Shown here: positions 1 through 10,715 of the stretch, piece by piece | Layout: the number at the start of each line of letters is the position of its first letter | How positions within the stretch are numbered: the stretch's first letter is position 1 | Assembly: GCA_045590195.1 (NCBI GenBank) | Contig: JAZNQN010000044.1 | Span: 100,889-164,888 of the forward strand | DNA length: 64,000 nt | Origin: Clostridia bacterium | Lineage (GTDB): Bacteria; Bacillota; Clostridia; UMGS1883; UMGS1540 | Reading direction: 5' to 3' | Notes under the pieces: model-generated | The model's database searches: none | What the model was told of the DNA's origin: nothing | What the model saw: only the letters and a program-made list of their open reading frames with translations | Program-made: the position numbers and the translations under genes

Positions 1-347
1 CACTTCTGGAACTTTCAAAGCAGTTTTTCATAAGCCATTCAGCCCTCAGCCAGAATTTTAAACGAGAGGTTGGCACATCATTTAATACATATCTTCGGCA
101 AAGAAGAATTTTTGAAGCCTGCACCCTCTTGCAAAAGCAAAATGTAACAGTTGAGGAAATAGCCTCAAAAGTTGGTTACAGCGATACAAAATACTTCAGA
201 GAAGTGTTTAAAAAAATACTGGGCTGCACTCCAAGAGAGTTTAGGGGATTTGTGAGAAAATCCCAAATGTGTCCTCATAAAAAAAATTGTTTTGCCGAAA
301 ACAGGCATCTTACCTGCAGTTTGCAAAAATACTGCACTCACGATTAA
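1..347 (+). CDS. AraC-family transcriptional regulator, C-terminal HTH fragment (5' end outside window)
   Basis: Frame 3 reads ...FKREVGTSFNTYLRQRRIFEACTLLQKQNVTVEEIASKVGYSDTKYFREVFKKILGCTPREFRGF..., a classic AraC HTH_18 signature. It is open to the window edge and stops at 347. Confidence 0.8.
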   Translation, partial: LLELSKQFFISHSALSQNFKREVGTSFNTYLRQRRIFEACTLLQKQNVTVEEIASKVGYSDTKYFREVFKKILGCTPREFRGFVRKSQMCPHKKNCFAENRHLTCSLQKYCTHD

Positions 348-396
348 AGTATAGCATTGAAACTTTATATGAACAACCGATAAAATTTCGCGTTTA

Positions 397-430
397 GGGG
401 GTATTATTCACAAATACCCCTTTTCTTTTT
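397..430 (+). terminator. Rho-independent terminator after the AraC gene
   Basis: GGGGGTATT...AATACCCC stem followed by TTTTCTTTTT. Confidence 0.7.
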
Positions 431-436
431 CGCTCC

Positions 437-465
437 TTGACACTGCAGTATTTTAGTGATATATT
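437..465 (+). promoter_or_regulatory. sigma-A-type promoter for the 897-aa gene
   Basis: TTGACA (437-442), 17-nt spacer, TATATT (460-465). RBS AAGGTGG sits 9 nt before the ATG at 512. Confidence 0.55.
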
Positions 466-511
466 TTAAGTTAGGTTATAATTATTTTCTTATTTTAAGG
501 TGGTATAATTT

Positions 512-3205
512 ATGAAAAGAACAAACAAAGTTGACGACTTTTTTGAAAAACAACCTCCACTTTTATTTTTAAAAGATTTAAAAGCTCCCTTGCATCCTGA
601 GCTTCCAGGCCTTTTCAAGGAACGCAAAGCCAAAGAAGGCGAAGTTTCGGCAAAGGGGCTTTATTTAGTACCTGAATTTGATGATAAAAATGGTTTACTT
701 GAAACAGCTTACGATGATTTTAAATGTTTTTTAGATGCATACTGCCTTGGCGGAAATCTTTTTCCTGTAAAGACGAGATACTGCGAAACAGATGTTTTTG
801 AGCAGTACATAATTGAAATTACTGAAAACGGTGTTACCATTTGTGCAGGCGATACAGAAGGCATAAGACGTGGCATATTCTATATTGAAGACGAGCTTAA
901 ATCGCGCGAGGCGGCATTTTTGCCACTTGGTATTATAAAACGTACTCCGCACATAAGAAAACGTATTACGCGCGGATTTTTCAGCCCTACAAATCGTGCA
1001 CCAAAATTTGGCGACGAGCTTTCCGACGATATTGATTATTACGATGACAACTATTTAAACCGCCTTGCCCACGATGGCTCAAACGGTTTATGGATTTATA
1101 CAAGATATTCCGATTTGGTTAAAACAGATATTATTCCCGAGTACGGCGAAGGCGGCGAAAGAAGAATTGAAAAACTTCGCAGTGTTTGCAAAAAATGTGC
1201 AAGATATGGTATTGGTATTTACGTTTTTGCAATCGAACCTGAAGCCCCAACAAAGCCTGAAATTTACGAGGCTCATCCGGAACTTTTGGGTGGGCGATCG
1301 GGAAACAGCGAATTCAGAGCGGCAAACGGAATTAAAACATTTTGTACTCACACAGAGGCTGGCAGAGCTTACTGCATTGAAGCTACAAGAAGGCTTTGCG
1401 TTGCCGCACCTGAAATTGCCGGCATCATGAGCATTACCGCAGGCGAAAGAATAACTTCCTGTGCAGCAGAAGCAGGCAGCAATTGTCCAAACTGCGGCCA
1501 TATTCCACGTGGCGAAGGTTTAGCTCAAACTATTGACTGTATTCAGGAAGGCATAAGGCAAAGCGGAAGCAAAACCATTGAATATATTAGCTGGACTTAC
1601 GGCCATAGAATGTGGGACAAAGAGGAAGATATTATTGACTATGTAAAACACGCCCCCAGCGACGTTATGCTTATGCAAAATTTTGACGATATGGCATACG
1701 AAGAGCAACTAGGCCGTGTAAGGCAGGGCGTTGACTACTGGCTTTCATACCCCGGCCCATCTGATTTATTTAAAAACACTGCACTTGCGGCAAGGGAATA
1801 TAACAAACATATATATGCAAAAATGCAGGTATGTTGTTCGCACGAAATTGCAACAGTACCCTATGTTCCTGCACCAGGTATTATCTTTGATAAATTCAAA
1901 GGTGCACACGAACTCGGTGTTGAAGGCGTTTTGGAATGTTGGTATTTTGGAAACTATCCTTCAATTATGAGTAAAGCTGCAGGCGAGCTTTCCTTCTGGG
2001 AAGATTTTGGCGACAAAAAGGGGTTTTTAAATCGACTTGCATCTATCTATGGCGGACAGAGTAATGCTGAAAATCTTGTATCTGCCTGGTATCTTTTTGA
2101 GGAAGGTTACAGAAAATATCCGCTTAACGTAATGTTTAGCTACTACGGCCCTATGCACGATGGCGTTTGTTGGCAGCTTCAGCTAAAGCCTAAAAACTTT
2201 TCTCTTTCCCGTTCGTGGCTTTTAATGGACCGCCCTGATGGCGACAGAATTTACGAAGCGCTTGCCTGCGGACACACTCTTGATGAAGTTATTGCTTTAA
2301 CTGATGAAATGGCAACAAAATTTGAAGAAGGTTTAAAGGTAGTTGACGGAACACCTGTTCCAAAAGAGCACGAAAGCGTTATAAAGGCTATGGCAACTCT
2401 TTTCAGAAGCGGAAACAATGTTCTTAAGTTTTACAAAAAAAGAGAGCAAATAGGCTTTTCTGAAGGCGACAGTGCTACGTTACTTTCCGAAATGGAAGCT
2501 TTAGTTTATGATGAAATTAAAAACTCCGAAAAAATGATTGAAATTTGCAAAAATGACAACCGTTTAGGTTACCATTCTGAGGCGGAGGGTTATAAATATT
2601 TCCCCGAAAAAATTGAGGACAGAATAGAAAAGCTAAAAATGCTTTTAGAAACAGAATTTGCCGAAGTTAAAGAGCGAATTGAAAAAGGGCTTGAACCACT
2701 TCCCTACTTTTTATCAGGAAGCGATGATGAAGTTCACTTTTCTCTTATTAAGGATAATATAGAAAATGCTGAAAAGCATTTTCTTGACGATGATTCCTCA
2801 TACTTTAGCACCTCATATGACGATGAAAACATATATATAAAGGTTTCGGGAAATAAAAATTTTGTTATTTCTCCTGAATTTATTCCAATGCACCCATATC
2901 CACCTGTTTGCATTTCAGCCGATGGAAAAGCAAACTTTAATTACGAAGCGAAATTTTACTATAACTATTTTGGCGAAAGGTTAGTAAGTGAAATCGCAAA
3001 ATGGAAAGCAGAAAAAACAGATGATGGTGTTTTAGTTACAGTTTCAAGAAAAGGCATTGAGTGGAACGGTAAAACTCCTATAAAGCTTTGCATTTCAACA
3101 CTTGAAGGGGCTAAATGGCTTCGCGATGAAATGGCAATTTATTCGCTTGGAAAATCAACTGTTTCTCCTGGTGATTTAGGCTGGTTTATACCAACGGAAA
3201 TGTAA
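512..3205 (+). CDS. large uncharacterised protein (897 aa), Cys-rich central region; possibly a glycoside-hydrolase-like enzyme
   Basis: Long ORF with a good RBS. Cys motifs SNCPNCGH and QVCCSHE. Sits in a sugar-utilisation context (AraC regulators, sugar kinase, sugar isomerase). No family assigned with confidence. Confidence 0.85.
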   Translation: MKRTNKVDDFFEKQPPLLFLKDLKAPLHPELPGLFKERKAKEGEVSAKGLYLVPEFDDKNGLLETAYDDFKCFLDAYCLGGNLFPVKTRYCETDVFEQYIIEITENGVTICAGDTEGIRRGIFYIEDELKSREAAFLPLGIIKRTPHIRKRITRGFFSPTNRAPKFGDELSDDIDYYDDNYLNRLAHDGSNGLWIYTRYSDLVKTDIIPEYGEGGERRIEKLRSVCKKCARYGIGIYVFAIEPEAPTKPEIYEAHPELLGGRSGNSEFRAANGIKTFCTHTEAGRAYCIEATRRLCVAAPEIAGIMSITAGERITSCAAEAGSNCPNCGHIPRGEGLAQTIDCIQEGIRQSGSKTIEYISWTYGHRMWDKEEDIIDYVKHAPSDVMLMQNFDDMAYEEQLGRVRQGVDYWLSYPGPSDLFKNTALAAREYNKHIYAKMQVCCSHEIATVPYVPAPGIIFDKFKGAHELGVEGVLECWYFGNYPSIMSKAAGELSFWEDFGDKKGFLNRLASIYGGQSNAENLVSAWYLFEEGYRKYPLNVMFSYYGPMHDGVCWQLQLKPKNFSLSRSWLLMDRPDGDRIYEALACGHTLDEVIALTDEMATKFEEGLKVVDGTPVPKEHESVIKAMATLFRSGNNVLKFYKKREQIGFSEGDSATLLSEMEALVYDEIKNSEKMIEICKNDNRLGYHSEAEGYKYFPEKIEDRIEKLKMLLETEFAEVKERIEKGLEPLPYFLSGSDDEVHFSLIKDNIENAEKHFLDDDSSYFSTSYDDENIYIKVSGNKNFVISPEFIPMHPYPPVCISADGKANFNYEAKFYYNYFGERLVSEIAKWKAEKTDDGVLVTVSRKGIEWNGKTPIKLCISTLEGAKWLRDEMAIYSLGKSTVSPGDLGWFIPTEM

Positions 3206-3278: not shown

Positions 3279-3310
3279 ATGAAAAAACCGCATTTTATAA
3301 TGCGGTTTTA
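3279..3310 (-). terminator. Rho-independent terminator, mainly for the minus-strand kinase gene, weakly bidirectional
   Basis: AACCGCATT-ttat-AATGCGGTT stem. U-tract on the minus strand (AAAAAA at 3282-3287 on the + strand); a weaker TTTTA on the + strand. Confidence 0.7.
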
Positions 3311-3431: not shown

Positions 3432-4376
3432 TTATATTTGGTTTAAATAAGGCATCGCTTTAATTGCGCCACGTCTTTGAACACAAAAGCCTGCAACTTT
3501 ATTTGAAAAATCAGCAAACTCCTGTACTTTTTCAAGTAGAATTTCGCTACTGCCAAAGTTTGCAACGTTAAAGAGGAATGCTCCCATAAAAGCATCTCCT
3601 GCTCCGGTTGTATCAACAGCTTTTACGTCCATTGCAGCAGAAGTAACAACGCCTTCTTTTGTTCTTATTATTGCGCCTTCTGCACCTTTTGTAACAATTA
3701 CAGTTTTAATTCCCAAATCAACAAGCGCTTTCGATGCATCTTCAGGGCTTTCAAAATCGGTTAAAAGCTTTGTTTCTTCATCAGATATTTTAATAACATC
3801 AACAAAGCCGAGAATTGAACGCATTCCTTCAATTGCAGCTTTTTCGCTTTTCCAAAGCGGTGCTCTGTAATTAGGGTCATAGGAAATTATGCAGCCTGCT
3901 TTTTTCGCCTCTTCAAGGGCAAAAAGTGTTGCGCTTTTTGCAGGCTCATCAGTAAGGGAAAGCGAGCCTACATGGAATATTTTCGAGTTTTTAATAAGCT
4001 CAGTTTTAACTTCCTCTTTTGTAAGGCAAGTATCGGCACCAGGTTTTCTTGCAAAGGAAAAGCTTCGGTCACCATTTTCATTTATATTTACAAAAGCCAA
4101 AGTTGTGAAAACGCTATCGTCGCTTATAAGGGCATCGGTACAGATATTTTCGCTTTCAAGAGTTTCTCTCAAAAAGTCGCCATGCATATCTTTTCCTATT
4201 TTGCCGATAAGAGCGGCCTCTCCGCCAAGGCGTTTAACTGCCGAAAGAACGTTTGCAGGTGCGCCGCCGGGGTTTTGCTCAAAAAGAGTTTGTCCACCTT
4301 CGCTTTTTCCTGCATAAGTCATATCAATTAAAATTTCGCCAAGTGCTACTACATCAAAGGTTTTCATTAAATTCAC
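3432..4376 (-). CDS. PfkB-family carbohydrate kinase (fructokinase-like)
   Basis: N-terminal GG sugar-binding motif, and DTTGAGDAF near the C-terminus, the ribokinase/PfkB signature. 314 aa. Confidence 0.85.
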   Translation of the reverse strand: MNLMKTFDVVALGEILIDMTYAGKSEGGQTLFEQNPGGAPANVLSAVKRLGGEAALIGKIGKDMHGDFLRETLESENICTDALISDDSVFTTLAFVNINENGDRSFSFARKPGADTCLTKEEVKTELIKNSKIFHVGSLSLTDEPAKSATLFALEEAKKAGCIISYDPNYRAPLWKSEKAAIEGMRSILGFVDVIKISDEETKLLTDFESPEDASKALVDLGIKTVIVTKGAEGAIIRTKEGVVTSAAMDVKAVDTTGAGDAFMGAFLFNVANFGSSEILLEKVQEFADFSNKVAGFCVQRRGAIKAMPYLNQI

Positions 4377-4384
4377 CCTTTCAA

Positions 4385-4969
<585 letters not shown>

Positions 4970-5010: not shown

Positions 5011-5041
5011 AATTATACTATATTGATATTTTGGTGATTTG

Positions 5042-5881
5042 ATGAAATCCAAACTATACAAAAGCGACAGTTATGTTAGCCGAGATACGGGCTTTACACT
5101 GCGAATGAACTATAGCTTTACTGAAAATTTTGAATTGCACCACCATGATTATTACGAATTTTTCTTAACCCTTTCAGGTAAAGCGATTCAGGAAATTAAT
5201 GGCAAAAGGCAATCTCTGCCTGAGAGAAGCCTTGTTTTAGTGCGCCCGGGCGATGTTCATACGTATATTAAAGAGGGCGAATTTTCTTTTGTTAATTTAA
5301 CTTTTACAAGTGATACTATGAAAAAGCTTTGCGATTACTTTGGCAGCTCACTTGAAAATATTATTAAAAAAGAAATTCCTCCAACTGTAATTTTAAGCCG
5401 CGAAAATTTTGATTCAGTTTTTGAAAAACTGAATAATCTCAATACAATAAGCCTTAGCGATACCGAAAAGGCTAACCTTAAAATGAAGCTTATTTTAACA
5501 GATATAATGGCTTTTATTATTGAAGGCGATAGCGAGAGAAGCCGCTCACTTGCGCCATTATGGCTTTCCTCTCTTGTTCTTCATTGTAAAAAGGCAGAAA
5601 ATATAAATATAACCCTTCAGGAAATGGCAGAATTTTCAAATAAAAGCAGAGAACATATTTCAAGATGTTTTAAAAAGTATTACGGGGTTACTGTTGCCCA
5701 GTTTATGAACGAACAAAAACTAAATTACAGCGCAAATTTACTGCTTAACAGCAATCTGCCCGTAATTGATATTTGTTATGAATGTGGCTTTCAGAATTTA
5801 AGTTGGTTTTATAGAAAATTCAAAGAAAAGTTTGATTTAACTCCCCATCAGTTCAGAAAAAATGCGGGATTTAATACATAA
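5042..5881 (+). CDS. AraC-family transcriptional regulator (cupin N-domain + HTH)
   Basis: N-terminal cupin-like domain and C-terminal AraC HTH (QFMNEQKLNYSANLLLNSNLPVIDICYECGFQNLSWFYRKFKEKFDLTPHQFR). ATG at 5042 is preceded by GGTGA; the track start at 5039 is TTG. Confidence 0.88.
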   Translation: MKSKLYKSDSYVSRDTGFTLRMNYSFTENFELHHHDYYEFFLTLSGKAIQEINGKRQSLPERSLVLVRPGDVHTYIKEGEFSFVNLTFTSDTMKKLCDYFGSSLENIIKKEIPPTVILSRENFDSVFEKLNNLNTISLSDTEKANLKMKLILTDIMAFIIEGDSERSRSLAPLWLSSLVLHCKKAENINITLQEMAEFSNKSREHISRCFKKYYGVTVAQFMNEQKLNYSANLLLNSNLPVIDICYECGFQNLSWFYRKFKEKFDLTPHQFRKNAGFNT

Positions 5882-5915: not shown

Positions 5916-7019
5916 TTAATTTATTTTTACGTTTTCCCAAAGAGTATTAAGATATCCCATCATATCAGTATCAAGATTTCGGAAAGCAAATTTATTATAT
6001 TTTTCCGAAAAGCTTCCAAGCTCAGGATAAAGAATTTCCATTGCCTTTTCGCCCATATCATCTTTATATGTTTCGTTATTATAAACAAGGCTGTTTGGCG
6101 ATGCATAACAGGTTGCCTTTGCATTTGCAACGGCAGGCTCTTCAGAGAGCATATAGTTTATAAATATTTCGGCAAGTTCTTTATTTTGTGCACAAGAAGG
6201 AATACACATAGCATCTACATAGAAGTTTGTTTGTTCAGGATAATAAATCTGAAGGTCAACATTTTCCGCCTGAGCCTCTGCCATTGTGAAATAGTCGCCA
6301 GCGTAATATGCACCAATTGCCGCTTCGCCCGATTCCATCATATTAAATATTTCGTCCATAACGTAGCTATATACATAAGGGCGCTGAGCAACAAGCTCTT
6401 CAAAGGCATCGTCCCAGTCGGCTTTGTTTGTTGAGTTTACATCGAGTCCAAGTTTGTAAATTGCAGTTCCAAATGCATCGCGAAGGTTATTAAACTGTAA
6501 AATACTTCCGCTGTATTTTTCGTTCCACATTAAATCCCAGCTACCGGTATCGGCTTTGTCAACAATATTGGCATCGTAAATTATACCAACTATGCCATAT
6601 GCATAAGGAATTGTGTATTTATTATCTTTATCATAATAAAGGCCTTTGAAAGTATCATCAATGTATTTATAATTTGGTATATTTTCAAAATTCAGTGGCA
6701 ATAGTAAATTCTCGTCAGCCATTTTTGCTATCATATAGTCAGATGGAATAATAACATCGTAGCTAACCGCTCCGCTTGAAATTTTGTTATACATATCTTC
6801 GTTTGAAGCAAATGTAGTATAATTTACGGTTATCTTTTGGCCATAAGTTTCTTCATACCATTTTTCAAATTCGCGGATAGTATCAAAGCTGCCTTCGCTT
6901 CCATCAGAAATATATTCGCCCCAGTTATATACATTAAGGGTTACTTTATTCCCGCCACAACCGCCAAAAAGCGGCAACATTATTAAAAGTGAAACTAAAA
7001 CTGCAATTATTTTTTTCAT
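5916..7019 (-). CDS. potD: ABC transporter substrate-binding lipoprotein, PotD (spermidine/putrescine) family
   Basis: Lipoprotein signal peptide (LFGGCGG), PotD-like length and motifs, last gene of an ATPase-permease-permease-SBP operon. Confidence 0.8.
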   Translation of the reverse strand: MKKIIAVLVSLLIMLPLFGGCGGNKVTLNVYNWGEYISDGSEGSFDTIREFEKWYEETYGQKITVNYTTFASNEDMYNKISSGAVSYDVIIPSDYMIAKMADENLLLPLNFENIPNYKYIDDTFKGLYYDKDNKYTIPYAYGIVGIIYDANIVDKADTGSWDLMWNEKYSGSILQFNNLRDAFGTAIYKLGLDVNSTNKADWDDAFEELVAQRPYVYSYVMDEIFNMMESGEAAIGAYYAGDYFTMAEAQAENVDLQIYYPEQTNFYVDAMCIPSCAQNKELAEIFINYMLSEEPAVANAKATCYASPNSLVYNNETYKDDMGEKAMEILYPELGSFSEKYNKFAFRNLDTDMMGYLNTLWENVKIN

Positions 7020-7849
7020 TTGGAAGTCCTCCCTTTTGCTTTCTTTTTATTAAGTTTTTTCATATCATCGTTATCAATAACATTGCTAATTAAAAGAAGT
7101 GCCATTGTTACAAAGAAAATAATGGTTGCAAGGGCATACATTTTCGGTGTAACAGTTTTTTTGGTCATACTGTAAATTCTGATAGGTAAAGTTTCAAAGC
7201 CGTTTCCTGAGGTAAAATAGCTTATTACAAAATCATCAAGCGAAAGAGTAAACGCCATAATAGCCCCTGTTATAATACCGGGCAGAATTTCAGGCAATTC
7301 AACCTTTAAAAAAGCTTTAAGCGGTGTACAGCCTAAATCCATTGCCGCTTCAGGAAGGGATTTATCCATCTGGCGAAGCTTCGGTAACACCTGCAAAATT
7401 ACATAGGGTGTACAAAAAGCAACGTGAGCTATAAGCATTGTTAAAAAGTTAAGGCTTGTTGATGCGCCGAAAAATCTTCCAACAAATACAAACATAAGCA
7501 TTAGTGAAATACCTGTTATAATATCAGGATTTGTCATAGGAAGGTCGGTAACGGTGTTCATAGCCGCACGATACCATTTTGAGCGGAGCTTATTTATTCC
7601 AACTGCCGCAAAAGTTCCCATAACTGTTGAAATAGCCGTTGCCGCAGTTGCAAGAATAAGCGTATTTTTTACGGCTTCAAGAGTATTTCTGTCACTTAAA
7701 AGCTCTTTATACCATTTAAGCGAAAAGCCCGAAAAAACCGATAAACTTTTCGATTCATTAAACGAGAAGAAAAGCAAAACAAGTATGGGAGCAAACAAAA
7801 AGCCAAAAATAACTGTGCTGTATATTTTAGATGACATTTTCATTTTCAC
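7016..7849 (-). CDS. potC: ABC transporter permease, PotC-like
   Basis: 6-TM permease with the ABC permease EAA-like region; 4-nt overlap with neighbouring genes. Confidence 0.85.
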   Translation of the reverse strand: MKMKMSSKIYSTVIFGFLFAPILVLLFFSFNESKSLSVFSGFSLKWYKELLSDRNTLEAVKNTLILATAATAISTVMGTFAAVGINKLRSKWYRAAMNTVTDLPMTNPDIITGISLMLMFVFVGRFFGASTSLNFLTMLIAHVAFCTPYVILQVLPKLRQMDKSLPEAAMDLGCTPLKAFLKVELPEILPGIITGAIMAFTLSLDDFVISYFTSGNGFETLPIRIYSMTKKTVTPKMYALATIIFFVTMALLLISNVIDNDDMKKLNKKKAKGRTSK

Positions 7850-8721
7850 TCACCCCCATATACATATTTGGCCGTAACATATTTTACAAGCGCCATAGCA
7901 ACGAGCAAAATTGCCATAAGAATAAATGCAATCGCCGCCGCAAAGTGAAGATTATTTGCAATATATTGGCCTTCAATAGCATCGCCTATGAGGAAAAACT
8001 TTCCGTTACCAAGCTTTTGCGAGATATAAAATGTGCTGATAGAAGGAATTAAAACCATAGTAATTCCCGATACAATACCCGGCATACTTAAAGGAAAAAC
8101 AACTCTTTTCATAACAGAAAAGCTGCCACAGCCAAGGTCTCTCGCGGCTTCTAAAAGGTTTAAATCAAGCTTTGCCAAAATTGAGTAAATAGGCAAAACC
8201 ATATATGGAAAATAATCGTAAACCATACCAATTATAACTGCAGTTTCCGTTCCTATAACGCTTATTGGCATTATGCCTAATTTAGAAAGAGCAGTATTTA
8301 TAATACCGGTATCCTGCAAAATAGTCATCCATGCGTATGTTCTTATAAGAAAGTTCATCCACATTGGAATCATAATAAGAGTAACCATTGTTTTTTGAGT
8401 TTTTTCTTTGGCACGTGCCATAATGTAAGCGATAGGATATCCCATTAAAAGGCACACTGCCGTTGAAATTACTGCAAGTTTTAAAGACCTTGCAAAAATT
8501 AAAAGGTAAGTACGAACTTCTCGGGTTGAGCCATCGTCTTCCAAAACATTACTTGTTGCCGTAAAAAAGCGAGTAATATTTTCAGTTGTGAAAGCAAAAT
8601 TATTGTCAGTAAAAGCATAATAAGCCACGAATATAAGCGGAACTATTACAAAAAGAACCGACCATACCGAGTATGGCGCAAGTGCCGCACGGTATGTATT
8701 TTGATTGTTTATTTTTTTCAT
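7846..8721 (-). CDS. potB: ABC transporter permease, PotB-like
   Basis: Polytopic permease, translationally coupled to potA and potC. Confidence 0.85.
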
Positions 8722-9836
8722 TCTTCGCCTTCACCTCCGGGGTTTGAAAGCTCGTCAAGCTCATTTGAAAACGAAGAATAATCGCCAAACATACCTGAAT
8801 ATTTCGATTTTTTCATAATGTGAATTGCATCAGGATCAAGAGAAATTCCGATATAAGAATCTTCGTAAACGGGGTCGGTTGTCTGAATCATCCATTTAAA
8901 GCCGCCAATATCAACAATTGCCTCGTTATGAACGCCCATAAATGTTACAGAAGTAACTTTTCCGCAAAGCATTCCATTGTCAGGCGATACAATGTCAACA
9001 TCTTCAGGGCGGATAACAACATCAACTGCCTCGCCCTTTTCAAAACCTTTGTCAAGGCATGAAAAAGTATGTCCGCCAAATGAAACTTTAAAATCTTCAA
9101 GCATAACGCCGTCAACTATGTTACTTTCGCCAATAAAATCGGCAACAAAGGCGTTTGCAGGCTCGTTATAAATATCTGTTGGCGTGCCGATCTGCTGAAT
9201 TTTACCCTCGCTCATAACAACAATTGTGTCAGACATACTGAGGGCCTCTTCCTGATCGTGAGTTACAAATATAAATGTAATTCCGGTATTTTTCTGAATT
9301 TTTTTAAGCTCCTGCTGCATATCTTTACGCAGTTTTAAATCAAGTGCACCAAGAGGTTCGTCAAGAAGTAAAACCTTTGGCTCGTTAACAAGCGCTCTCG
9401 CTATGGCAACCCTCTGCTGCTGACCGCCTGAAAGGCTTGTAACCTTTCTGTCGGCAAAGCCTGAAAGCATAACCATTTTAAGCATTGCGTCAACTTTTTC
9501 TTTAATTTCATCTTTTGGAACTTTTCTCTCTCTTAAAGGAAAAGCCACATTTTCAAATACATTAAGATGGGGAAACAATGCGTATTTCTGAAAAACTGTA
9601 TTTACGTGTCTTTTATGAGGAGGTACATCGTTTATTCTCTCTCCCATAAAAATCACGTCGCCATTGTCGGGGTTTTCAAATCCGCCGATAATTCGAAGAG
9701 TTGTTGTTTTACCGCAGCCTGAAGGGCCAAGCAAGGTAATAAACTCATTGTCGTGAATATCAAGGCTTATGCAGTCGAGAACCATTTCATCGCCAAATGT
9801 TTTGGAAATATTTTTAAGTTCAATGATTTTTTTCAT
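8718..9836 (-). CDS. potA: ABC transporter ATP-binding protein, PotA-like (with C-terminal TOBE-like domain)
   Basis: Walker [10 protein letters not shown], signature [15 protein letters not shown], Walker [12 protein letters not shown]. Start set at MKKIIELKN (9836) with an upstream GGGGA RBS. The 14-codon GTG extension in the track overlaps a terminator hairpin and is rejected. Confidence 0.9.
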
Positions 9837-9863
9837 TTCTATTCCCCTATCTTTTATCGCAGT

Positions 9864-9895
9864 AAAATTAAAAGGCACGCCGAATGCGGCATGCC
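9864..9895 (-). terminator. intrinsic-terminator-like hairpin in the potA 5' leader (attenuator candidate)
   Basis: Minus-strand RNA GGCAUGCCG-cauu-CGGCGUGCC followed by UUUUAAUUUU, ending about 25 nt before the potA RBS. Confidence 0.55.
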
Positions 9896-10232
9896 ACTTG
9901 TAAACAAATATTACGATATTTTACCGATAAATACAGAAAACCCATCACAAAAAATACCGGTATGCTAAATCGCAATCAGATCAGAGTCTATATAGTAAAG
10001 ATTACTTTTACTACTCTTATTGACCATTTCACAAGCTTATGCCCAAGGCATTTTCGGTTATAAAGTAACCAACTTATAAAACTGAGCTTTTAACTCAATC
10101 AATAAGGCAACTAAAGTCGCCAACCCTAAAGGGTTTTTCGGCATTCGACCCGGCTGTCCGTATGGCCTTAGTCTAAAAATAGACGGTCTTAAATCTTACT
10201 TTGGAAACACTGCTCCAATTGAGATCCATTAA

Positions 10233-10504: not shown

Positions 10505-10640
10505 TGAAGCTTTCTTGGTATTAGAGCGCCTCTGGCTTTCAGAGGAAGAGCCGTCGACGCCAGGAAAACTTCTTTTTTGATATGTTATTAATTTTATAGT
10601 AAAAAATGCTGTAACCCTAATGGTTACAGCATTTTTTATT
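10505..10640 (+). ncRNA. candidate small RNA (promoter-to-terminator unit of about 135 nt, no plausible ORF)
   Basis: Bounded by the promoter at 10470-10498 and the terminator at 10608-10640. Internal hairpin CCUCUG-gcuuu-CAGAGG. The only ORF is a 5-codon peptide. Confidence 0.35.
10608..10640. terminator. bidirectional rho-independent terminator
   Basis: GCTGTAACC-ctaat-GGTTACAGC flanked by AAAAAA and TTTTTTATT. Ends the + strand unit and the minus-strand tRNA. Confidence 0.7.
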
Positions 10641-10715
10641 GGAGCTGGTGGCGTGAATCGAACACGTGACCTTTTCATTACGAGTGAAATGCTCTACCGA
10701 CTGAGCTACACCAGC
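10640..10715 (-). tRNA. tRNA-Thr (anticodon CGU), 76 nt with encoded CCA
   Basis: Hand-folded: acceptor GCTGGTG/CACCAGC, D-arm GCTC/GAGC, anticodon stem TTTCA/TGAAA with loop CTCGTAA, T-loop TTCGATT, 3' TCCA. One A:C mismatch at the base of the T-stem. A TTGCGA/TAGAAT-like promoter lies just upstream at 10722-10760. Confidence 0.85.

Follow-up and report, generated by a model that had tools for sequence, protein, structure and literature searches.

The Pfam domain DUF4838 (PF16126) holds two CAZy families of glycoside hydrolases, GH163, which includes the endo-beta-GlcNAcase BT1035, and GH185, which includes the 6-sulfo-beta-GlcNAcase Sp_0475. The authors of the GH185 study proposed Asp309 of Sp_0475 as the acid/base, an assignment that is not definitive, and our literature search for a structure or metal site of GH163 or GH185 gave nothing relevant. 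Here we analysed a window of 64,000 nucleotides of a Clostridia bacterium, in which an ORF close to the left edge encodes a protein of 897 aa (Table 1). The initial annotation called this protein Cys-rich and of unrecognised family, and suspected a cysteine glycosidase leading a mannose/lyxose-type sugar island.

Table 1. Features of the locus, with positions in the window
Feature	Position	Strand	Basis
AraC-family regulator gene, 3' end (HTH domain), truncated by window edge	3..347	+	Translation is a typical AraC C-terminal HTH
Terminator-like hairpin 3' of AraC gene	396..422	+	10-bp stem, then T run
Sigma-70-like promoter TTGACA-17-TATATT, extended -10 TG	437..465	+	11/12 matches, the region's best
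RBS AAGGTGG, 8 nt 5' of ATG	497..503	+	Sequence; same in 89% ortholog
Gene of the 897-aa protein	512..3205	+	ATG ORF
N-terminal alpha/beta domain, GH20b-like, aa 44-145	641..946	+	AF2 secondary structure; aligns with DUF4838 N-domain
(beta/alpha)8-barrel catalytic domain, aa 150-480	959..1951	+	AF2 model
Putative acid E312 within four-Cys putative metal site	1343..1495	+	Conservation in 88 cluster representatives
C278	1343-1345	+	87/88 representatives
Putative catalytic acid E312	1445-1447	+	88/88 representatives
C317	1460-1462	+	88/88 representatives
C325	1484-1486	+	88/88 representatives
C328	1493-1495	+	Fourth Cys as CxxC or CxxxC in 88/88
QVCCSHE segment, aa 439-445, family-specific	1826..1846	+	S443, H444, E445 conserved, C441 not
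Helical bundle domain, aa 485-735	1964..2716	+	AF2 model
C-terminal beta-sandwich, aa 740-897, least conserved part	2729..3202	+	AF2 model
Hairpin between convergent genes, A and T runs on both sides	3284..3309	.	11-bp stem, T-rich tail
PfkB kinase	3432..4376	-	Fructokinase homolog, E 1e-49 to 5ey7
Cupin, clear D-lyxose/D-mannose isomerase	4385..4939	-	E 7e-65 to 7nzo and 2y0o
Second AraC-family gene, divergent from isomerase-kinase pair	5039..5881

Family, fold and relation to DUF4838

The 897-aa protein gave no match in Pfam or NCBIfam at E<=1 and none among PDB sequences with phmmer, which bears out the description as an unrecognised family; tblastn against plasmids returned zero matches. 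The family comprises 1,342 clusters at 50% identity, and at least 535 species-representative genomes carry relatives, mostly genomes of gut or rumen Clostridia, with a concentration in poorly cultured Oscillospiraceae and other Clostridia; all public copies are named 'hypothetical'. Since Pfam, NCBIfam and PGAP naming do not see it, this large family is missed by metagenomic CAZyme inventories based on them. It may found or belong to an uncurated GH-like family, and a recent CAZy family might cover it; a literature search for a recently established GH family of such an architecture gave nothing relevant, many of the text matches to 'GH163' being, by their titles, apparently 'GH16_3'. The label Cys-rich applies only mildly: with 21 Cys, or 2.3% of its residues, the protein ranks 4 of 41 among the large ORFs of the window, whose median is 1.5%. 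No signal peptide is present, and the protein is a real, probably cytoplasmic enzyme; cytoplasmic subgroups are found in DUF4838 (GH163/GH185) as well (PMC10570127).

The AlphaFold (AF2) model was confident (pLDDT 91.5), and the fold search suggested in the initial annotation returned TIM-barrel glycoside hydrolases as its top matches, the fold neighbours being glycoside hydrolases throughout (GH138, GH84, GH20, GH67 and GH115). A helical domain comparable to that of the model follows the barrel in the GH138, GH67, GH115, GH84 and GH20C matches, and the alignment of many distant relatives stops at about residue 730. Comparison of the family profile with DUF4838 by hhalign gave a probability of 98.0% (E 2.5e-13, 388 columns; 97.5% in a rerun), with an alignment that spans the N-domain, the barrel and the beginning of the helical domain. 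This profile evidence relates the family to DUF4838 by remote homology at the superfamily level; PF16126 itself matches neither the window protein at E<=1 nor any of 52 diverse members at E<=0.01 (0/52). Distant relatives carry fusions to GH2, GH28, DUF4838 and GDSL modules, and in some bacteria modules of the family and of DUF4838 are fused or neighbouring. Model and sequence comparisons together indicate that the 897-aa protein is very probably a glycosidase. This part of the initial annotation is upheld by fold matches to glycoside hydrolases only, the remote homology to DUF4838, the hydrolase fusions and the conserved CPxC, whereas the cysteine-glycosidase mechanism attached to it fails.

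Conserved cysteines and the putative active site

Both Cys motifs singled out from the sequence are real, SNCPNCGH at residues 323-330 and QVCCSHE at residues 439-445; their conservation differs sharply, with C325 of the CPxC invariant (88/88) and the vicinal pair poorly kept (C441 15/88, C442 58/88). Gly, Ser or Ala takes the place of C441 in 70 of the 88 representatives and Asn that of C442 in 16, while Q439 (84/88), S443 (78/88), H444 (78/88) and E445 (85/88) are retained. The universal cysteines lie elsewhere: C278, C317, C325 and C328 flank the putative Glu312, and all four are present in 87/88, because the fourth is found as CxxC or CxxxC in every representative and C278 in 87.

The catalytic domain of HypBA1 (GH127) is an (alpha/alpha)6 barrel. 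The initial annotation had likened C441-C442, beside H444 and E445, to the catalytic Zn-Cys centre of GH127/GH146 enzymes, and the 897-aa protein very probably does have a metal site formed by cysteines; C441-C442-S-H-E is moreover invariant in close relatives of at least 47% identity (47/47 and 42/47). The likeness goes no further than the broad notion that cysteines and a metal lie close to an active site. The protein has a TIM barrel, a fold other than that of GH127/GH146, its sequence is unrelated, PF07944 (Glyco_hydro_127/DUF1680) has no match at E<=1 in it and none in 52 diverse members, the vicinal cysteines are replaced across the family as described above, and the universal ones correspond to a site with a structural role in GH42. 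Conservation and fold thus largely refute a cysteine glycosidase, which we regard as scarcely credible.

The account that we favour, and consider fairly probable as a whole, is a cytoplasmic glycoside hydrolase with Glu312 as acid/base and the four cysteines as a metal brace, transcribed alone and probably controlled by an AraC-type regulator. Glu312, at the end of barrel strand 304-310, would be the general acid/base and the counterpart of the sole invariant carboxylate of DUF4838. Against this assignment stands the Gly before it, a position at which clan GH-A typically has Asn and the catalytic pairs of GH20 and GH84 have Asp. A tetrahedral metal, most likely Zn2+, would sit on Cys278, Cys317, Cys325 and Cys328 and stiffen the loop of Glu312; the predicted site is similar to one in GH42 beta-galactosidases, a structural Zn(Cys)4 located after the acid/base Glu, and by this analogy the role of the metal is most likely structural. 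We judge it improbable that the Cys4 centre is instead essential to function, serving to switch activity under the control of redox state or metal. Hydrolysis would probably be retaining, with an enzyme carboxylate as the second catalytic residue (Glu445, Glu242 or Asp/Glu392, all conserved in the family and absent from DUF4838) rather than the substrate itself, and the enzyme would trim imported oligosaccharides.

Transcription and independence from the isomerase-kinase pair

As noted before, the gene lies between two AraC-family genes, one of them partial, and a promoter is present upstream of it. Its -35 and -10 elements, like the RBS and the start codon, are kept in the 89% ortholog; promoter-like sites in the region equal the shuffle expectation in number, so the support for this one comes from its position and conservation. 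The hairpin 3' of the truncated AraC gene keeps its left arm and loop in the same ortholog and not its right arm, which makes its role uncertain; the left arm falls within a block conserved in the ortholog and is a possible operator candidate. The hairpin beyond the stop codon owes its scan score to the minus strand, and its flanking A and T runs make it probably a bidirectional terminator. Judged from these sequence signals, the gene has a promoter and a terminator to itself and is monocistronic. At the position of the truncated AraC gene, the 89% ortholog has a complete AraC of 309 aa (HTH_18/HTH_AraC), and an AraC gene is the commonest neighbour of the family (25/85 loci, 15 of the genes within two genes of the target). 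The upstream AraC is therefore a candidate regulator, and the 897-aa gene would be transcribed alone from its own promoter, probably under this regulator.

The gene is indeed convergent with the PfkB kinase and the D-lyxose/D-mannose-type cupin isomerase, the arrangement from which it had been read as the lead enzyme of a mannose/lyxose island. In such an island it would be a mannosidase or lyxoside-cleaving enzyme that feeds the adjacent isomerase and fructokinase in one catabolic route. Against this stand the separate promoters of the convergent genes, the terminator between them and the second AraC gene, which sits divergently next to the pair. Moreover, kinase and isomerase are missing from all 85 other clustered family loci, which lie outside the window's lineage, and both form singleton clusters; the kinase is kept only in the 89% ortholog, fetched after the clustering, and is lacking in the 66% and 64% orthologs. 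Conversely, the pair occurs together in 12 of 35 metagenomic loci, with a family member in none of the 35. The pair is a separate conserved module that is not functionally tied to the 897-aa protein, and the island is quite improbable.

Gene neighbourhoods were rejected as a guide to the substrate, the contexts of the family being too heterogeneous; for distant members, the look-ups covered short contigs only. GFO/IDH/MocA and xylose-isomerase-like TIM genes recur at family loci, and such neighbours occur in oxidative glycoside-cleavage pathways. They would suit a GH-like scaffold adapted to a phosphorylase, lyase or transglycosylase, or a metal/redox protein, given the concentration of the family in strict anaerobes and its four conserved Cys, which are conceivable ligands of an Fe-S cluster. 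However, the structural and sequence relatives are hydrolases without exception, the fusion partners are hydrolases and esterases, and the CPxC knuckle with two distal Cys in a GH42-like spacing points to structural Zn, so that we consider a non-hydrolase very improbable.

Comparison with known glycoside hydrolases

In overall multidomain architecture the 897-aa protein corresponds to GH138 (the alpha-galacturonidase BT0997/BPa0997, PDB 6hze), at 11-12% identity in structural alignments; 6hze is missing from the PDB sequence matches of both the protein and the family profile at E<=10. Identity to the GH20/GH84 beta-N-acetylhexosaminidases is 9-15%. The family profile matched the N-terminal domains of GH20 structures in the PDB (7dvb/7dup, E 3.5e-4; 4pys), and PF02838 was weakly matched by 4 of the 52 members (best E 9e-5), while the catalytic domains of GH20 and GH84 (including PF00728) had no Pfam match in the protein or in the 52 members.

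The catalytic pair is Asp-Glu in GH20 and Asp-Asp in GH84. An enzyme of the substrate-assisted beta-N-acetylhexosaminidase type, like GH163, GH185, GH20 and GH84, would likewise use Glu312 as acid/base, with the 2-acetamido group of the substrate as nucleophile, polarised by Glu242 or Asn191 with help from Tyr409. In the family, however, Gly-Glu-Arg stands at the acid/base position in place of an Asp-Glu or Asp-Asp pair; the three further conserved carboxylates without a DUF4838 counterpart also speak against it. Among the annotated neighbours in the inspected loci there are no Pfam families of the NagA/NagB type, and plant-glycan-type genes are found instead. GH67, GH115 and GH138, which have a similar architecture, are not hexosaminidases. 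We therefore regard substrate-assisted catalysis as possible but rather unlikely, and catalysis by an enzyme carboxylate as the preferred reading.

GH42 beta-galactosidases have a structural Zn(Cys)4 site, Cys113/153/155/158, around the acid/base Glu148. The four Cys of the family are spaced around Glu312 in the same way, in a register that is kept only in low-confidence alignments. Against real GH42 sequences, collected with a GanA-like bait, hhalign gave a probability of about 1% for the family and a marginal 22% for DUF4838. As hhalign was not significant and PF02449 had no match, homology to GH42 was rejected in favour of a structural analogy only. GH42 also differs in its Asn-Glu motif, which the family lacks, and in its accessory domains, and no GH42 gene occurs among the fetched family loci.

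The closest relation remains that to DUF4838, whose kinship narrows the range of substrates to screen, and the placement as its remote sister provides targets in Glu312, the Cys4 site, Tyr363, Tyr409 and the family-specific Ser-His-Glu445. E312 aligns with D323 of DUF4838 (54/54), a Glu in the family and an Asp in DUF4838; D323 is the only invariant carboxylate there, and we infer that it corresponds to Asp309 of Sp_0475. C278 has its counterpart in C284 (54/54) and C325/C328 in C331/C334, the family motif C-x7-CPxC standing against CxCPxC in DUF4838. The Cys4 centre, invariant in DUF4838 too, is unmentioned in the GH185 study, the one paper searched for it, and the motif thus appears to be an invariant, apparently undiscussed trait of GH163/GH185-type enzymes. 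Y363 and Y409 correspond to Y373 (54/54) and Y433 (53/54), and an HPE motif is common to both. By contrast, E242, E392 and the segment with K437, Q439 and S443-H444-E445 have no conserved counterpart in DUF4838, the K437-E445 segment being entirely unmatched in the alignment, and the C-terminal beta-sandwich is an addition of the family.

The gene and its family

Translation of the window confirmed the 897-codon ORF and both cysteine motifs named in the initial annotation, which had also called the product Cys-rich; with 21 cysteines (2.3%; the window median is 1.5%), it is only mildly so. The promoter-like site of the gene is the joint-best match (11/12) in the first 5.2 kb of the window, and alignment showed that the closest relative, an 89% identical ortholog, keeps the -35, the -10, the ribosome-binding site and the start codon. 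The terminator-like hairpins on either side make the gene look monocistronic. A block upstream of the -35 (375-432) is likewise shared with this ortholog. It overlaps the upstream hairpin at the left arm and loop, the right arm not being conserved; the block may be an operator for an AraC protein instead of a terminator. Downstream, the opposite strand carries the PfkB kinase and cupin genes, followed by a second AraC gene.

Features of the window, the 897-aa protein and related loci (residue counts are over 88 family representatives or 54 DUF4838 proteins; DUF4838 residues mapped by hhalign)
Feature	Position	Strand	Basis or family conservation	DUF4838 residue
C-terminal HTH of AraC-family protein, upstream of 897-aa gene	3..347
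Terminator-like hairpin, upstream	396-422
Promoter-like site TTGACA-17-TATATT, extended -10	437-465	+	motif scan
Ribosome-binding site AAGGTGG	8 nt 5' of ATG	+	sequence
ORF of 897 codons, ATG start	512..3205	+	translation
Terminator-like hairpin, downstream	3284-3309
Fructokinase-like PfkB kinase	3432-4376	-	matches fructokinases, E 1e-49
D-lyxose/D-mannose isomerase (cupin)	4385-4939	-	matches solved D-lyxose/D-mannose isomerases, E 7e-65
AraC gene, divergent from isomerase-kinase pair	5039-5881	+	best NCBIfam match ChbR
ldcC/SpF59 RNA motif (Rfam), upstream of spermidine/putrescine-type ABC transporter operon (about 5916-9878, -)	10138-10189	-	68.5 bits, E 7e-11
tRNA-Thr (CGT)	10640-10715	-
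N-terminal alpha/beta domain	about residues 44-145		AlphaFold2 model
Beta/alpha barrel	residues 150-480		AlphaFold2 model
Helical bundle	residues 485-735		AlphaFold2 model
C-terminal beta-sandwich	residues 740-897		AlphaFold2 model
SNCPNCGH motif	residues 323-330
QVCCSHE motif	residues 439-445
Cysteine	C278		87/88	C284 (54/54)
Glutamate in Gly-Glu-Arg motif, end of strand 304-310	E312		88/88	D323 (54/54; sole invariant carboxylate)
Cysteine	C317		88/88	none aligned; own invariant C329 two residues before C331
Cysteine	C325		88/88	C331 (53/54)
Cysteine	C328		77/88 (CxxxC for CxxC in other 11)	C334 (53/54)
Tyrosine	Y363			Y373 (54/54)
Tyrosine	Y409			Y433 (53/54)
Vicinal cysteine	C441		15/88 (Gly, Ser or Ala in 70)
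Vicinal cysteine	C442		58/88 (Asn in 16)
Ser / His / Glu	S443 / H444 / E445		78 / 78 / 85 of 88
ASRT/M24/creatininase trio in fetched loci	L001/L013 5700-7988; L016-L018; L053; L089/L090 15257-17577

As the initial annotation had judged, the family is unrecognised: the protein matched no Pfam-A or NCBIfam model even at E<=1, and phmmer against all PDB sequences returned nothing meaningful. A word-indexed search of 5.8 billion proteins found more than 1,575 homologs, the closest among the matches listed being full length and 47-89% identical. Within the family region, no Pfam domain was seen in any of the 120 best-listed homologs, though P0119 bears a PF02522 acetyltransferase domain at its N-terminus that is unrelated to the family. 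All of those that are named are called 'hypothetical protein'. An exhaustive search of 50%-identity representatives counted 1,342 clusters with E<=1e-3, of which 459 reached E<=1e-30. At least 535 stretches of species-representative genomes encode a relative, the best 80 coming almost all from gut/rumen MAGs of Oscillospiraceae, Eubacteriales, Acutalibacteraceae, Lachnospiraceae and similar groups. The protein is one member of a large glycoside-hydrolase-like family that is uncurated. A signal-peptide-like N-terminus was seen in 0/119 close and 14/111 distant relatives, many of the latter 14 being long multidomain proteins. Tandem paralogs lie side by side in two fetched loci (L009 8001-13400; L036 4554-10100) and as NCBI MBE6695540/MBE6695541.

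Predicted fold and relationship to DUF4838

An AlphaFold2 model built with a 47-sequence alignment was confident (mean pLDDT 91.5, pTM 0.92). Its top Foldseek match in the PDB was a GH138 alpha-galacturonidase (E 1e-20, 11-12% identity, full-length TM 0.51); GH20, GH67, GH84 and GH115 enzymes came next. GH127 and GH146 enzymes have an (alpha/alpha)6 architecture, which the predicted beta/alpha barrel excludes; the catalytic cysteine centre of that type proposed initially was judged wrong.

A profile of 88 diverse members matched only GH20 N-terminal domains among PDB sequences (E 3.5e-4); in one-by-one Pfam scans of 52 diverse members, four weakly matched Glyco_hydro_20b and none matched a catalytic-domain model. 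Several long relatives carry a DUF4838 (PF16126) module on the same polypeptide, and one has a DUF4838 gene directly upstream of the family gene; therefore, we compared DUF4838 directly. A five-sequence DUF4838 profile, from which copies fused to the family were left out, gave 64% probability (E 6e-5). With an enlarged set of 88 standalone PF16126 proteins, 54 of them aligned, hhalign gave 98.0% probability (E 2.5e-13; 388 columns, query residues 51-538), and a local rerun gave 97.5%. On this match, the family is a remote sister of DUF4838, not a member. Both GH163 and GH185 of CAZy belong to DUF4838 and are distant GH20 relatives that use substrate-assisted catalysis on beta-GlcNAc linkages (PMC10570127). 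The predicted glycoside-hydrolase fold neighbours and the DUF4838 homology both speak for the original idea that the 897-aa protein is a glycosidase, which it very probably is.

Genomic neighbourhoods

The isomerase and kinase genes are as initially described, but the functional link proposed between them and the 897-aa protein found no support. When ORFs from 85 other family loci and the first 14 kb of the window were clustered, the window kinase and cupin were singletons. The order AraC, family gene and convergent PfkB is kept only in the 89% ortholog, fetched after clustering, and is absent from the 66% and 64% orthologs. Conversely, none of 35 metagenomic loci encoding relatives of the isomerase contains a family member; at 12 of these loci, for the most part ones at least 67% identical and with enough flank, PfkB lies immediately 3' of the isomerase. 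The pair recurs without the family and the family without the pair; therefore, the pair with its own divergent AraC gene is a self-contained, compact two-gene catabolic module whose position next to the 897-aa gene is lineage-specific.

Fusion partners of distant relatives (DUF4838, four times; GH28 and GDSL esterases, twice each; GH2, a GDPD domain and an F5/8 type C domain) and neighbouring genes further support a carbohydrate-active role. AraC-type regulators are the neighbours met most often (25 loci). Sugar ABC permeases (8 and 6 loci) and GFO/IDH/MocA oxidoreductases (6 loci) are less frequent, and there are also SGNH esterases, xylose-isomerase-like TIM proteins and YesM-type kinases; around the 66% ortholog lie GH2 and GH36 genes, three GFO/IDH/MocA genes and an ABC transporter. 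In 5 loci, the gene directly 3' of the family member encodes a CE15-like, glucuronoyl-esterase-type hydrolase; this may point to substrates that contain uronic acids, which would agree with the structural resemblance to GH138, GH67 and GH115. One such neighbour is a 335-aa Abhydrolase_7/fungal-glucuronoyl-esterase-like gene (L049 10696-11703), with counterparts in four other loci. Many other family genes occur singly among housekeeping genes, and the neighbourhoods indicate no particular substrate. In 6-8 loci, the family gene has beside it or close by a trio of genes of the ASRT (PF07100), M24/creatinase-like and creatininase-fold types; the trio comes in L089 together with FGGY kinase, SDR, PHP, ureidoglycolate-lyase-like and mannitol-dehydrogenase-family genes.

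Conserved cysteines and the putative active site

Across 88 representatives, down to 28% identity to the query, the CPxC-type motif is conserved, the fourth cysteine being always present as CxxC or CxxxC, and all four cysteines (C278, C317, C325 and C328) occur in 87. The vicinal pair, considered important in the initial annotation, is not conserved, and the K437-E445 segment has no DUF4838 counterpart. We propose that E312 is the putative general acid/base, equivalent to the D309 proposed for GH185 (PMC10570127), and that the four cysteines would hold a structural metal shaping the E312 loop. For the second catalytic group, E445, E242 and D/E392, carboxylates specific to this family, point to a classical mechanism with two carboxylates; given the homology to hexosaminidases, a substrate-assisted mechanism may apply instead.

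DUF4838 proteins (alignment A6; P0416-P0503) carry a C...D...CxCPxC set (C284, D323 and C329, 54/54; C331 and C334, 53/54) whose spacing matches the GH42 zinc site. The GH185 paper mentions neither cysteine nor zinc (PMC10570127), and a probable metal site in GH163/GH185 therefore seems undiscussed. The structural zinc site of GH42 comprises Cys113, Cys153, Cys155 and Cys158 around the acid/base Glu148, and in a related GH42 enzyme the zinc lends stability to the catalytic domain and has no part in the reaction itself (PMC8573354). For the 897-aa family, GH42 would serve as an analogy only: direct comparison was not significant (about 1% probability), nor was that of DUF4838 with GH42 (22%, E 1e-3). 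Though not significant, these comparisons preserve the register of cysteines and carboxylate, and the 897-aa family, like GH42, has one cysteine ~35 residues upstream, the putative catalytic carboxylate and then three cysteines.
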